64,000 nucleotides of DNA from Gammaproteobacteria bacterium (GCA_041496745.1 JBGQFF010000001.1:16675-80674), one strand, 5' to 3'; positions 30,217 through 45,559 are shown, counted from the first letter of the stretch. Notes: a model not told the origin generated them from the letters alone. Program-made: numbers and translations.

Positions 30217-30234
30217 CCATAAGGGATCTGTAAG
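30217..30234 (+). promoter_or_regulatory. Direct-repeat motif copy 1 (CCATAAG-GGAT-CTGTAAG) upstream of the tatT operon
   Basis: It matches the copies at 39924 and 45542 at 14 of 18 positions and lies 60 nt upstream of the tatT ATG. Confidence 0.4.
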
Positions 30235-30293
30235 CGCGTCCCCCATGACCATGGGATGGCTGCGCTGAGGCGTCGCCCATACGCTGCATCGTC

Positions 30294-31202
30294 ATGGCCA
30301 AGACCCTGCACAACTGGACGATATGCGCGCTCCTCGCGCTGGTTGCCGCCGCACCCGGCTGCTCGGTGCGGCAGATGGCGGCCAGTTCCATCGGCGATGC
30401 GCTGGCTGGCGGCGGCGACGCCTATGCCGCCGACGACGATATTGACCTGATCGGTGCAGCGACGCCCTTTGGGTTGAAGACCATCGAGTCGCTGCTTGGC
30501 ACGGTACCCGAGCATCGCGGGCTCCTGCTCGCCGCGGCGCGCGGCTTCACGCAGTACGGCTACGTCTGGGTGCAGATGCCGGCGGAGGAGATGGAGGAGC
30601 ACGACGTGCGCGCCGCCTACGCGCAGTACGCGCGCGCACGGCGGCTCTACCTGAGGGCGCGCGACTACGGTCTGCGCGGCCTGGGTCTCTCGCGGGAGGC
30701 GATGCGCGCCGACCCGGCAGCGGCGCTCTCGCGCGCCACGCGCGAGGACGTGCCGCTCCTCTACTGGACCGCGTTCGCCTGGGGGGCGGCGATTTCGCTC
30801 AGCAAGGACGACCCGGCGATCATCGCCGGCCTGCCTGCCGTGGACGCGCTGGTGCGCCGCGCGGCCGAGCTCGACATCGACTGGGACTCGGGCGCGCTGC
30901 GCAGTTTCCTCATCGGCTACGAGCTGAACCGTCCGAACGCGGCACCCGACGCGATCACGCGCGCGCGGCGCCACTTCGAGCGCGCAGTCGAGCTCTCCGC
31001 CGGCCAGCAGGCAGGGCCCTACGTGTCGCTCGCCGAATCGGTGGCAGTGGCGCGCCGCGACCGCCGAGAATACGAGGCGCTTCTCAATCAGGCCCTGGCG
31101 GTCAACCCCGACCAGCGGCCCGAATGGCGCCTCGCCAACCTGGTGATGCAGCGTCGCGCGCGCTGGCTGCTCGCGCGCGCCGAAACCCAGTTTCCGGAGT
31201 GA
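30294..31202 (+). CDS. TRAP-transporter-associated TPR lipoprotein, TatT family
   Basis: Lipobox AAAPGC, then MAASSIGDALAGGGDAYAADDDIDLIGAATPFGLKTIESLL. An all-helical TPR-like body is followed by the TRAP P and QM subunits. Confidence 0.8.
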   Translation: MAKTLHNWTICALLALVAAAPGCSVRQMAASSIGDALAGGGDAYAADDDIDLIGAATPFGLKTIESLLGTVPEHRGLLLAAARGFTQYGYVWVQMPAEEMEEHDVRAAYAQYARARRLYLRARDYGLRGLGLSREAMRADPAAALSRATREDVPLLYWTAFAWGAAISLSKDDPAIIAGLPAVDALVRRAAELDIDWDSGALRSFLIGYELNRPNAAPDAITRARRHFERAVELSAGQQAGPYVSLAESVAVARRDRREYEALLNQALAVNPDQRPEWRLANLVMQRRARWLLARAETQFPE

Positions 31203-31207
31203 ACGCC

Positions 31208-32209
31208 ATGCACACCGTCCTCGTCGCCGCATGCTTGCTGCTTGCCGCCCTGCCCACGCGGGCCGCCGATCCGCCCCTCATCAAGATCGCCACGGTCGCT
31301 CCCAAGGGCTCGATCTACCACCGCGTGCTGCAGGAGACCGGCCAGGCCTACCGCGACGCCACCGGCGGCCGGGGCAGGGTGGTGGTGTACGCGGACAGCC
31401 TGCAGGGCACCGAGTCCGACACGGTGCGCCGCATGCGCGTCGGGCAACTGGATGCCTCGATGCTCACCGTGGTCGGCTTGAGCGAGATCGATCCCTCGGT
31501 GGCCGCGCTGCAGTTCATGCCGATGATGTTCCGCTCGTGGGAGGAAGTGGACCACGTGCGCGAGGCGCTGCGGCCCATGCTGGAAGACAAGCTCGGCGCC
31601 AGGGGCTTCGCCGTGCTCTTCTGGGGCGAAGCGGGCTGGGTGCAGTTCTTCACCAAGGAGCCGATCACGCTTCCCGCCGAGTTCAAGCGCGCGCGCATCT
31701 TCGTCTGGGCCGGCGACAACGCCCAGCTCGCGCTCATGAAGTCGCTCGGCTACCACCCGGTGGGCCTGCCGATCACCGACATCCTGCCGGGCCTCGAGAC
31801 GGGCATGATCGACACGGTGCCGGTGGCGCCGTTGTGGGCGCTGGTCGGCCAGTTCGACCGGGTCACCCGGCACATGCTGCCGGTCAACTGGGTGCCGATC
31901 GTCGGCGCCACTGTGATCCGGCGCCCCACGCTTGACGCGATGTCGCCGGCAGCGCGCGAGGCGGTGCTCGCCTCGTCGAGGAAGGCGGGCGAGCAGCTGC
32001 GCGCGCACCGCGAAGTGCAGGACCAGGAGTCGATCCGGGCCATGCAGGCGCGCGGACTGGTGGTGAGGCCGCTCACGCCCGAACTCGAGCGCGCCTGGCG
32101 CGAATTGGCCCAGCAAGCGTGGCCGCTGGTGCGCGGCTCGATGGTGCCCGCGGAAACCTTCGATCGCGTGCAGGCGGTGCTCGCCGCCTACCGCGCGGGG
32201 CGCAAGTGA
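31208..32209 (+). CDS. TRAP transporter substrate-binding subunit (DctP/TatP type)
   Basis: ATG 31208 gives the signal peptide MHTVLVAACLLLAALPTRAA, followed by LIKIATVAPKGSIYH. The track ORF starts at 31124, inside tatT. Confidence 0.88.
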   Translation: MHTVLVAACLLLAALPTRAADPPLIKIATVAPKGSIYHRVLQETGQAYRDATGGRGRVVVYADSLQGTESDTVRRMRVGQLDASMLTVVGLSEIDPSVAALQFMPMMFRSWEEVDHVREALRPMLEDKLGARGFAVLFWGEAGWVQFFTKEPITLPAEFKRARIFVWAGDNAQLALMKSLGYHPVGLPITDILPGLETGMIDTVPVAPLWALVGQFDRVTRHMLPVNWVPIVGATVIRRPTLDAMSPAAREAVLASSRKAGEQLRAHREVQDQESIRAMQARGLVVRPLTPELERAWRELAQQAWPLVRGSMVPAETFDRVQAVLAAYRAGRK

Positions 32210-43796: not shown

Positions 43797-43837
43797 CCGC
43801 ACCACTCCCCCCGCAGGGAATCTTAACCCGGTCCAGC

Positions 43838-45499
43838 TCAACGCAGCAGCCTGTCGGCCTGCTGGATCTCCGCGGGTTGCAACGCGGCCTTGACCTTTTC
43901 GATCCGGGCCTTGGCCTCCGCGTTCCCGGCGCGCGCCGCGCGGCTGAACCAGACGTAGGCCTGGAAATTGTTTTGCGGGACGCCGCGCCCGGCGGCGTAC
44001 ATCTCGCCCAGCGCCAACTGCGCCTTGGCATTGCCCTGGTCGGCGGCCTTGCGGGTCAGCGCCAGGCCTTCGGCGTCGTTGCCGCGCGCGCGCGCCTGCT
44101 CGGCGAGCGCCAGCAGATCCGGCGCGGGTGGCGGCGCGGGCGCCGGCTCCGCCGGCTTCTTCGGCGGCGGCGCGACGGGCTCGGCGCGGCGCGCCTCTTC
44201 CTGGCGCGTGCGCTCCAGCCCGGCTTGCTTCCTGGCCTCGGCGTCGCGGCGCGCGCGCTCGGCATCGGCTTGCTTGCGAGTCGCGGCCTCGCGGCGCACG
44301 AGCTCCTCGGCGCGCTTCTTCTCCAGGTCGGCCTGCTGCTGCTGTTGCAGTCGCTGCTGCTCCTCGCGCTGACGTTGGCTCGCGGCCTCAACCTCGCGCT
44401 GCTGCTGGTTCTCGAACGCGCGCCGCTGGGATTCAAAGCGCTCCCGCTCGTCGGCGAACTTCTTGCGTTCCTCGGTCGGCACCAGCCACAGCACCACCGC
44501 GGCGGCTGCGACCAGTGCGCCCAGGCCGGCCCAGATGACCGGCCCGCGCAGCGATGCGGCCGGCGCCGTTGCGGCGGGCGGCGGCGCGCTTCGCGTCACG
44601 GGTTTGGCTGCGGAAGCGAGTTCCCCGCGCCACTCGGCGATGCTCTGCGGGCGATCCTTCTCGGCGAACTGGAGCGCGTGGTCGATGGCTTTGAGCAAGC
44701 CTGCCGAATAGCGCCCGCTGCCGATGGTGACGGCCGGCACCAGGATCTCGAGCGTGCTGCCGAGGATGCCCTTGCTGCGTGCGATCGCATCCATCGGCGC
44801 GATGCCGGCGATGGCGCGGTAGCAGGTGGCGCCCAGGCTGTAGAGGTCGGTCCACGGGCCCTGGTTCTCGCCGCTCGAGTAGTACTGCTCGAAGGGCGCG
44901 TAGCCGGGCGCCACCAGGATGGTGACGGTACGGGCGTGGCCCAGCGAATGGCGCGCGGAGCCGAAATCGAGCAGCACCGGCGAGCCGTCGGCGCGGATGT
45001 GGATGTTGTCCGGCTTGATGTCGCGGTGAATGAACCCCGCGTTGTGCACCAACTCCAGCCCGTCGAGGATCGGCAGCACCACGCGCATCAGCTCCTCCTC
45101 AGGGAGCGTGCGGCGCCGCTCGAGCAGCGAGGCCAGGTTCTCGCCATCCTCGAAGCGCATCACCATGTAGGCGGTGTTGTTGTGCTCGAACACCGAGTGC
45201 ACGCGCACGATGTTCGGGTGGTCGAAGCGCGCGAGCGTCCGCGCCTCGCGGATGAAGCGGTCCAGCCCCCAGCGGTAGCGCTCGCTCTGCTCCTCGGTGC
45301 GCGAGCGCACCGAGGCGTCCGCCCGGCGCGTGGCGACGTCCACCGGCAGGTATTCCTTGATCGCCACCGACTGGTCGAGGTTGGTGTCGCGCGCCAGGTA
45401 GGTGATGCCGAAGCCGCCCTGGCCGAGGACGCGCTCCAGCACGTACCAGTGCAGCCGGTACTGCGCCGGCAGCGCGTCTGGGTAGGAGGGGTCGCTCAT
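43838..45499 (-). CDS. Transmembrane Ser/Thr protein kinase with extracytoplasmic coiled-coil and Sel1/TPR repeats
   Basis: The Hanks kinase motifs are GQGGFGITYLA, AIKEY, HRDIKPDNI, DFGSA and APGYAPFEQ. The TM span is VIWAGLGALVAAAAVVLWLV. An E/Q/R-rich segment follows, and the C-terminus has Sel1-type repeats (AQLALGEMYAAGRGVPQN..AYVWFSRAA). Confidence 0.92.
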   Translation of the reverse strand: MSDPSYPDALPAQYRLHWYVLERVLGQGGFGITYLARDTNLDQSVAIKEYLPVDVATRRADASVRSRTEEQSERYRWGLDRFIREARTLARFDHPNIVRVHSVFEHNNTAYMVMRFEDGENLASLLERRRTLPEEELMRVVLPILDGLELVHNAGFIHRDIKPDNIHIRADGSPVLLDFGSARHSLGHARTVTILVAPGYAPFEQYYSSGENQGPWTDLYSLGATCYRAIAGIAPMDAIARSKGILGSTLEILVPAVTIGSGRYSAGLLKAIDHALQFAEKDRPQSIAEWRGELASAAKPVTRSAPPPAATAPAASLRGPVIWAGLGALVAAAAVVLWLVPTEERKKFADERERFESQRRAFENQQQREVEAASQRQREEQQRLQQQQQADLEKKRAEELVRREAATRKQADAERARRDAEARKQAGLERTRQEEARRAEPVAPPPKKPAEPAPAPPPAPDLLALAEQARARGNDAEGLALTRKAADQGNAKAQLALGEMYAAGRGVPQNNFQAYVWFSRAARAGNAEAKARIEKVKAALQPAEIQQADRLLR

Positions 45500-45541
45500 C
45501 GGGGCGGGGGCGGCGCCGCCACTGTACTACCGCCCCGCCTC

Positions 45542-45559
45542 CTGTAACCGATCTGTAAG
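45542..45559 (+). promoter_or_regulatory. Direct-repeat motif copy 3 (CTGTAAC-CGAT-CTGTAAG) in the kinase/lipoprotein divergent region
   Basis: It matches copy 2 at 16 of 18 positions. It lies 43 nt from the kinase start and 85 nt upstream of the lipoprotein ATG at 45644. Confidence 0.45.

Follow-up and report, generated by a model that had tools for sequence, protein, structure and literature searches.

A conserved 11-bp-period direct repeat as the predicted operator of a MalT-like STAND regulator with a C-terminal SARP module

Work on SARP regulators and their heptamer operators has been confined almost entirely to actinomycetes, where they act as antibiotic-production switches. The operators consist of heptamers with 4-bp spacers; PimR, SanG and PolR use CGGCAAG in two or three copies, and the PimR site does not overlap the -35 element (PMC3367932). 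SARP repeats are spaced 11 or 22 bp apart and lie close to the -10 element, and in the afs box of AfsR the direct repeats occupy -40 to -30 and -29 to -19 (PMC10936776). A Gram-negative example of the protein module is GSU1771 of Geobacter sulfurreducens, in which a C-terminal SARP-type module follows an N-terminal receiver domain (PMC10599522). Here we describe three copies of an 11-bp-period direct repeat in a 64,000-nucleotide stretch of a Gammaproteobacteria bacterium genome (GCA_041496745.1, JBGQFF010000001.1:16675-80674; this whole stretch is referred to as the window, and positions are counted from its first letter). A preliminary description of this DNA had taken heptamer repeats spaced one helical turn apart to be the known SARP operator format, which agrees with the published operators (PMC3367932, PMC10936776). 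Judged from sequence comparison, there is a strong probability that the repeats form the operator of the adjacent STAND-SARP regulator, which would activate its own gene, a lipoprotein-luxR operon and a TatT-TRAP transporter operon. The sites are strongly conserved promoter elements, and very probably they serve as binding sites of this neighbouring regulator and mark a small regulon. In the searchable literature, no description of this regulator family or of the motif was found, and a search for CTGTAAG direct repeats gave nothing relevant.

The three copies all lie on the plus strand and share the consensus C(T/C)(G/A)TAA(G/C)-N4-CTGTA(A/G)G. Site 1 (30217-30234; CCATAAGGGATCTGTAAG) consists of the two heptamers CCATAAG-ggat-CTGTAAG and, at 20.9 bits, is the lowest-scoring copy. 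Site 2 (39924-39941; CTGTAAGCGATCTGTAGG) reads CTGTAAG-cgat-CTGTAGG and scores 29.9 bits. Site 3 (45542-45559; CTGTAACCGATCTGTAAG) scores 29.5 bits and runs on to 45570 as a three-heptamer array, CTGTAAC-cgat-CTGTAAG-ccaa-CCGTGAG (45542-45570), the third heptamer of which (45564-45570) is degenerate. The sequences and coordinates first given for the three copies are exact, as are the identities of 16/18 (sites 2 and 3) and 14/18 (sites 1 and 2). The string GATCTGTA occurs three times in the window against 0.38 expected, a count reached in none of 100 shuffles, and the 18-mer consensus with up to three mismatches finds exactly these three sites in 64 kb against 0.00 expected. A weight matrix was trained solely on sites from other loci and then run over both strands of the window; it gave no match besides these sites, with the overlapping third repeat at 18.4 bits and the best shuffle score at 16.1. 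The matrix and mismatch scans thus bear out the statement, made earlier by eye, that the 64 kb contain no further copies. A longer repeat element was considered and rejected: when 158-bp flanks were aligned, similarity was confined to the 18 bp, which shows that the copies do not belong to such an element.

All three sites lie ahead of genes. Site 1 lies 3 nt past the stop codon of a GGT gene (28532-30214) and 59 nt ahead of the ATG of tatT (30294-31202, plus strand); its placement before the tatT operon had been recognized correctly, with the gap put at 60 nt. Site 2 includes the TAA stop codon of a GDPD gene (39927-39929), and its final base is the first base of the longest possible open reading frame of the regulator, so of the claim that all copies are plus-strand elements in non-coding gaps the strand stands, while site 2 overlaps a stop codon. 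The site 3 array ends 73 nt before the ATG of a 155-aa lipoprotein gene (45644-46111, plus strand) and starts 43 nt from the start of a divergent Ser/Thr protein kinase gene (43838-45499, minus strand). The gene map, built from Pfam scans and start-codon checks, confirms that this site separates the divergent kinase operon from the lipoprotein-luxR operon, as had been described.

The regulator (39977-43195, plus strand) is composed of a MalT-like STAND NTPase, a TPR-like sensor and a C-terminal SARP module, that is, a winged helix-turn-helix (wHTH) followed by BTAD. Its start codon is uncertain (ATG at 39977, ATG at 39998 or TTG at 40022); the gene had been placed at 39941-43195, of which the end is correct, but the real start is further downstream. 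The N-terminal 366 aa match MalT (8bob, 5.4e-31). Pfam assigns BTAD to residues 957-1079 (1.1e-17), and Trans_reg_C gives 2.1e-4, under the gathering score. A C-terminal profile built from 12 family members (260 aa) matches the AfsR SARP domain (8hvr_I, 1.8e-17, positions 12-257) and EmbR (2fez_A, 9.8e-14, positions 16-257), so the C-terminus has the OmpR-type wHTH and all-helical BTAD with which SARP proteins bind DNA. These BTAD, AfsR and EmbR matches confirm that the protein ends in a SARP-type wHTH, although the label "SARP-type" fits the module and needs qualifying for the protein, which is a MalT-like STAND ATPase with a C-terminal SARP. The AAA_16/NPHP3_N/MalT-like NOD is at about residues 60-370 and the SARP at 860-1080. 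AfsR-type proteins carry an N-terminal SARP, then an NB-ARC-type NOD and TPR; here, and likewise in distant relatives, this order is reversed. With respect to the LAL/MalT family, the ATPase part corresponds (8bob; WHD_MalT in the family), while the C-terminal GerE HTH is absent and wHTH-BTAD stands in its place. The family is large: one protein search returned 2041 homologs of the window regulator (more than 2000 at E ≤ 1e-20), a distant member has more than 1000 relatives at E ≤ 1e-30, and most relatives are from uncultured Gram-negative bacteria.

Conservation was followed in a Burkholderiales-type set of 60 metagenome loci found via the regulator protein and 10 found via TatT homologs (individual loci are given L numbers). 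The arrays in these loci consist of two to four heptamers at a strict 11-bp period. Of 55 distinct regions upstream of the regulator, 38 carry an array immediately before the gene, and all 21 close orthologs (≥78% identity) have the site 2 array at the same distance, whichever gene is upstream (GGT, GDPD or others). At the lipoprotein promoter, a co-oriented array, often of three or four units, is present in 23 of 25 upstream regions, and where the lipoprotein gene diverges from the regulator the array is inverted along with it. Four of six tatT upstream regions have an array, the other two tatT genes standing directly after a second, array-bearing lipoprotein gene; orthologous tatT promoters read GCGTAAGTCATCTGTAAG, CCGTAAGCCATCCGTAAG or CGGTAAGTCATCTGTAGG, 58-61 nt before the start codon. 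Upstream regions of eight control genes of the related loci had no array (0/71). Across 556 kb of these loci we counted 83 arrays, 74 of them standing before a regulator (41), lipoprotein (27) or tatT (6) gene in the orientation of that gene, and none inside a mapped gene; the remaining nine precede other genes, several of which code for lipoproteins or secreted proteins. The arrangement of the units varies. L065, L067 and L068 have the order array-lipoprotein1-regulator and array-lipoprotein2-tatT operon, and in L069 a tatT operon without a neighbouring regulator still keeps its array. The earlier suggestion that the regulator autoregulates and co-controls the transporter operon and the lipoprotein/LuxR genes is supported by this comparative genomics, with binding itself predicted.

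Several of these loci differ from the window in gene content. L065 (3050-3633, 9421-9999) and L067 (2881-3465, 9392-9981) contain a pair of lipoprotein paralogs, and each paralog has an array; one shares its operon with the regulator and the other belongs to the tatT operon. The window, by contrast, has a single lipoprotein copy and a tatT operon with its own array. In L061 (6759-7535) and L062 (minus strand), and also in L104, a perfect array (CTGTAAGCAATCTGTAGG, 30.7 bits) precedes a gene for a 235-aa putative lipoprotein with a C-terminal membrane segment; this gene is inserted between PPase and GGT and is absent from the window. Further extra arrays in L016, L056, L048, L120 and L093 also precede lipoprotein or secreted-protein genes.

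The association between motif and regulator extends well beyond this clade. A scan with the motif alone (CTGTAASYSATCTGTARG; one genome per species, 185,579 species) found at least 119 tiles with the motif, at least 22 of which contain a STAND-SARP gene; tiling was in fixed 8-kb blocks irrespective of match position, and the co-occurrence counts are lower bounds. Among the matches listed, the STAND-SARP proteins are 30-87% identical to the window protein, and about seven more tiles carry other module genes. Tiles with both motif and module come from Acidiferrobacterales, Nitrospirota, Kofleriaceae, Planctomycetota, Geobacter, Competibacter, Thiogranum and Vulcanimicrobiota, and one gammaproteobacterial tile (L167) has the order array-TatT-DctP-DctQM-regulator. 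Of the full-length distant proteins run against Pfam, most have the architecture of the window regulator, with several matches under curated cut-offs and two proteins that look truncated. In GC-rich distant tiles, reading frames called after the motif were mostly spurious. In the reverse direction, five homologs of a distant member were picked by protein similarity alone, and four of the five loci have the motif within about 0.06-3.2 kb of the gene (6 matches against 0.25 expected). Relatives are 30-48% identical over the C-terminal SARP module, and the recognition helix TLHRLRKLL and its surroundings (LWP..GD...TLHRLRKLL) are near-invariant, which fits a fixed operator. Two distant loci contain more than one family member: L192 (2781-9165) has two STAND-SARP paralogs in tandem and L048 has three members. 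If such paralogs share one operator, cross-talk or hetero-oligomers are expected. The 14 nt before the first heptamer of distant sites are A/T-rich, with a recurring TTTC..(G/C)AAT (e.g. aatttcccaatCTGTAAG; L100, L106, L137, L158, L168, L175, L179, L190 and L192); this block could be a further degenerate repeat unit or an UP-like element.

The binder could instead be another direct-repeat regulator encoded elsewhere, either a PhoB/OmpR-family response regulator or a separate small SARP. The E. coli Pho box is an 18-bp site of two 7-bp direct repeats, CTGTCAT, with a 4-bp spacer, and it replaces the -35 element about 10 bp upstream of the -10. The window sites have the same 7+4+7 layout and heptamers that likewise start with CTGT, and a GDPD gene, typical in function of the Pho regulon, sits in the tatT operon. 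PhoB is a two-component response regulator, though, and within the 64 kb of the window we found no receiver-wHTH gene, no other OmpR-type wHTH regulator and no second SARP protein. The heptamer is CTGTAAG rather than CTGTCAT: positions 5 and 7, C and T in the Pho box, are consistently A and G here and differ from it in nearly all sites. In both search directions and across phyla, the motif goes with the STAND-SARP gene and not with pst/pho; the genes found next to it encode STAND-SARP, lipoprotein and TatT proteins. The small-SARP variant draws on L158 and L173, where SARP-only proteins adjoin the motif; these proteins carry the same recognition helix and so belong to the same DNA-binding family. 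We regard a binder of this other kind as improbable, and the adjacent STAND-SARP regulator as the better candidate.

The position of the repeats relative to the promoter also resembles that of SARP operators. Counting as -10-like any hexamer whose second base is A and whose sixth is T, regulator-linked matches show peaks 11 nt and 22-23 nt after the last heptamer, while unlinked matches are flat. Lower-GC relatives have clear hexamers (TATAGT, TATAAT, TACTAT, TAAAAT, TTATAT) 10-11 nt after the last heptamer, a distance that places the heptamers near -41 to -35 and -30 to -24. In the window, a candidate -10, GACCAT, is predicted at 30247-30252 (plus strand), 12 nt after site 1, and tatT orthologs read GACCAT, GAGCAT or GGCCAT there within a conserved CCATGRSCATGGGAT block. 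A second candidate, CACGAT, is predicted at 39965-39970 (plus strand), 23 nt after site 2; CACGAT/TACGAT is conserved, and regulator relatives have -10-like hexamers 21-23 nt after the array. For the lipoprotein promoter the candidate is GATGAT, 22 nt after the degenerate third heptamer. Heptamers of 11-bp period with 4-bp spacers and a 3' repeat close to the -10 element, as in SARP operators, are therefore present, and their position relative to the -35 is predicted from these candidates.

Two neighbouring signals bear on where transcription may start. A conserved TGAGAAGAT at 39991-39999 (plus strand) is a putative extended -10 (TG-n-GAAGAT) of a second, basal regulator promoter, and in view of it all three start codons of the regulator are candidates. 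Regulator orthologs with as little as about 55% identity have RTGRGAAGATKG conserved in their upstream regions (seen in L011, L013, L014, L017, L020, L033, L039 and L047), and because it is in different reading frames across clades (frames counted by hand) it is a DNA-level or RNA-level signal. An RNA hairpin in the regulator leader was considered and rejected (0/18 pairs with double changes in 18 orthologs, covariation term +0.43), and a sigma-54 reading of the TGGCA after site 2 was dropped, as its GG-N10-GC spacing is not kept in relatives when followed by hand. At the other end of the module, the block ACTGTACTACCG (45521-45548), between the kinase start and site 3, is conserved in all close relatives. 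Its minus-strand reading contains a candidate promoter of the kinase operon, with -35 GTTACA, a 16-nt spacer and -10 TACAGT, and the -35 is the reverse complement of heptamer 1 of site 3. Because of this overlap, a protein bound at site 3 could activate the lipoprotein-luxR operon and at the same time repress the kinase-lipoprotein operon. The proposed co-control of a kinase/lipoprotein/LuxR module thus divides in two: site 3 points at lipoprotein-luxR as proposed, and an effect on the divergent kinase operon is a separate prediction.

The copies might also be read as relics of recombination or insertion, att-like sequences that flank the 9.7-kb TRAP and 5.6-kb regulator-kinase segments, or as a promoter element of an alternative sigma factor. 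Three direct repeats on the same strand do bound two gene blocks, and in many relatives GGT and the regulator are adjacent, with one array, which gives the TRAP-GDPD block the look of an insertion. Against this, flank homology is absent and no integrase is present, and gene order around the tatT and lipoprotein promoters that carry arrays differs widely between loci, each array turning around with its gene. The arrays also range from two to four units at a strict 11-bp period, lower-GC relatives have a sigma-70-type -10 at 10-11 nt, and the neighbourhood lacks a conserved sigma-factor gene; unit number, inversion and downstream -10 fit neither a relic nor a sigma-factor element. The comparative data already largely refute both versions, and we consider them extremely improbable.

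Some observations count against the STAND-SARP regulator as activator at these sites. First, about three quarters of the scan tiles listed show no regulator. These are AT-rich chance matches, tiles ending near the match and one repeat family in Ignavibacteriales. Second, 17 of the 55 regulator upstream regions are without an array; most are explained by a lipoprotein-regulator operon with the array further upstream, and L016, L022, L054, L057 and L058 remain unaccounted for. Third, the -10 elements in the GC-rich clade of the window are weak and ambiguous, and the gap of 12 nt at tatT differs from the 22-23 nt at the regulator and lipoprotein promoters, where the array is one helical turn upstream of the classic SARP position. 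Fourth, a scan of 30000-46200 for consensus sigma-70 promoters gave 0 sites, a result that is uninformative, yet agrees with activator-dependent promoters. Fifth, if TGAGAAGAT were the true regulator promoter, site 2 would lie near -70. Lastly, the gene for a 76-aa GerE/LuxR-type HTH protein (46115-46342, plus strand) keeps its place behind the lipoprotein gene within the close clade, and its product could in principle bind.

The Ignavibacteriales repeat family just mentioned comes from a metagenome-assembled genome (CAVXTT01) in which CTGTAAGCCATCTGTAAG is repeated exactly at many places, in some cases as inverted pairs separated by 20-40 nt. The copies (seen in L071, L096, L109, L112, L114, L116-L118, L125, L127, L130, L131, L152, L156 and L189) have no -10 after them and no regulator nearby, and look like an unrelated interspersed repeat family whose match to the pattern is coincidental.

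Were the GerE/LuxR protein the binder, the STAND-SARP would act elsewhere or upstream in a cascade; in L061-L064 the tatT array is in fact immediately preceded by the GerE gene. GerE-type HTH proteins usually bind as dimers to inverted repeats and not to direct repeats of 11-bp period such as those found here. No GerE homolog was found in the distant tiles that have both the motif and a STAND-SARP gene, GerE being confined to the close clade. Arrays of two to four head-to-tail units, moreover, fit wHTH/SARP proteins (PMC3367932, PMC10936776). We give this possibility very little credence. Given the co-occurrence of motif and STAND-SARP across phyla and the direct-repeat format, both a GerE binder and a PhoB-type or other binder are unlikely.

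Based on these comparisons, we propose that the C-terminal SARP module of the STAND-SARP regulator would bind in head-to-tail orientation along one face of the DNA, each 11-bp unit taking one protomer. The arrays of two to four heptamers, C(T/G/C)GTAA(G/C) with 4-bp spacers, would be placed just upstream of weak promoters without a -35 element, so that the bound regulator could recruit RNA polymerase and activate, rather than repress, three transcription units. The first would be the regulator's own gene, by positive autoregulation; the second, the lipoprotein-luxR operon; and the third, the operon for a TatT-type TRAP transporter, BcrAD_BadFG-DUF2229 proteins and GDPD. Regulator activity is presumably gated by binding of a nucleotide and a ligand to the STAND/TPR part, and perhaps also by the neighbouring Ser/Thr kinase, by analogy with AfsK-AfsR and PknH-EmbR.

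The predicted target operons are as follows. The tatT operon (30294-39929, plus strand) continues after tatT with genes for DctP (31208-32209), a fused DctQM (32119-34023), an unknown 558-aa protein (34057-35733), a BcrAD_BadFG ATPase (35727-37901), DUF2229 (37834-39063) and, last, a GDPD phosphodiesterase (about 39036-39929), all on the plus strand; a matching string of genes is found in relatives L061-L070. In the second operon, the GerE/LuxR-type gene starts 4 nt past the stop codon of the 155-aa lipoprotein gene, and this pair, whose existence as a lipoprotein-luxR operon had been predicted correctly, is kept in the close clade. A minus-strand open reading frame overlapping it (46154-46873) was rejected as a shadow, the real minus-strand gene coding for a 156-aa SKI-type kinase (46342-46812). 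Between the regulator and site 3, the minus strand encodes the Ser/Thr kinase, which according to Pfam has a C-terminal Sel1 repeat and by synteny is a conserved partner, and a conserved putative lipoprotein of about 206 aa (43176-43796, lipobox LAAGC). The latter matched no Pfam family, and in relatives its gene always adjoins the regulator and kinase. Elsewhere in the window, a stand-alone CheY-like receiver of 142 aa (18243-18668, minus strand) is the sole two-component element matched by an OmpR probe.

It seems reasonably probable, though with less assurance than for the operator itself, that these loci represent a previously undescribed "reverse AfsR" class of activators, found in more than one phylum, in which a MalT-like STAND ATPase is joined to a C-terminal SARP. 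In this class, the DNA-reading head (LWP..GD..TLHRLRKLL) and the operator (ATCTGTAAG units of 11-bp period abutting the -10) would be fixed from Burkholderiales to Geobacter, Nitrospirota, Planctomycetota and Myxococcota, and the Burkholderiales module, with its Sel1-type kinase and lipoproteins, would control the TatT-type TRAP and BcrAD_BadFG/DUF2229 set. This module may be an envelope or lipid-sensing circuit. The finding provides a testable operator and regulon for a large uncharacterised regulator family, and links that family to the poorly understood TatT/TPR-associated TRAP transporters and to BcrAD_BadFG/DUF2229 proteins, which have no known role. Regulons of the family could also be predicted directly from metagenomes by means of the fixed operator sequence.

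The regulator shares features with several known systems. Like GSU1771, it has a C-terminal SARP in a Gram-negative bacterium, but it has a STAND ATPase where GSU1771 has a receiver domain, and the GSU1771 paper describes no repeat operator of the window type (PMC10599522). With the MalT/LAL family it shares the homologous N-terminal 366 aa and, across its own family, the WHD_MalT and MalT-like TPR domains; MalT and LAL proteins differ in having a C-terminal LuxR/GerE HTH instead of wHTH-BTAD, and MalT boxes are unrelated in sequence. PimR, a SARP-LAL protein of Streptomyces natalensis, likewise combines a SARP module with a LAL/MalT-type ATPase. The CGGCAAG heptamer of PimR, SanG and PolR is one base off the CGGTAAG variant of the relatives here, and PimR activates the LuxR-type gene pimM, as the array here precedes a lipoprotein-luxR operon. 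PimR differs in that its SARP is N-terminal, its single target is pimM and it is an actinomycete regulator of secondary metabolism.

AfsR of Streptomyces coelicolor, a large SARP protein (SARP, NOD and TPR), likewise joins a STAND ATPase to wHTH-BTAD, as the window regulator does. The afs box (-40 to -19) and the heptamers of the lower-GC relatives are both 11-bp repeats beside the -10, coinciding within a base. The two differ in domain order, the MalT-like NOD being N-terminal and the SARP C-terminal here, and in host, an actinomycete as against a Gram-negative bacterium of Burkholderiales type. The repeat sequence (CTGTAAG) is also different from that of AfsR, and two of the three window arrays are one turn further from the candidate -10. 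AfsR targets antibiotic clusters; here, lipoprotein genes and an operon for a transporter and enzymes are the predicted targets. Near afsR is afsK, which codes for a Ser/Thr kinase, and the window regulator also has a Ser/Thr kinase as its neighbour. This conserved kinase partner parallels AfsK-AfsR and PknH-EmbR, suggesting that Ser/Thr kinase-SARP pairs predate the actinomycetes and extend beyond them.

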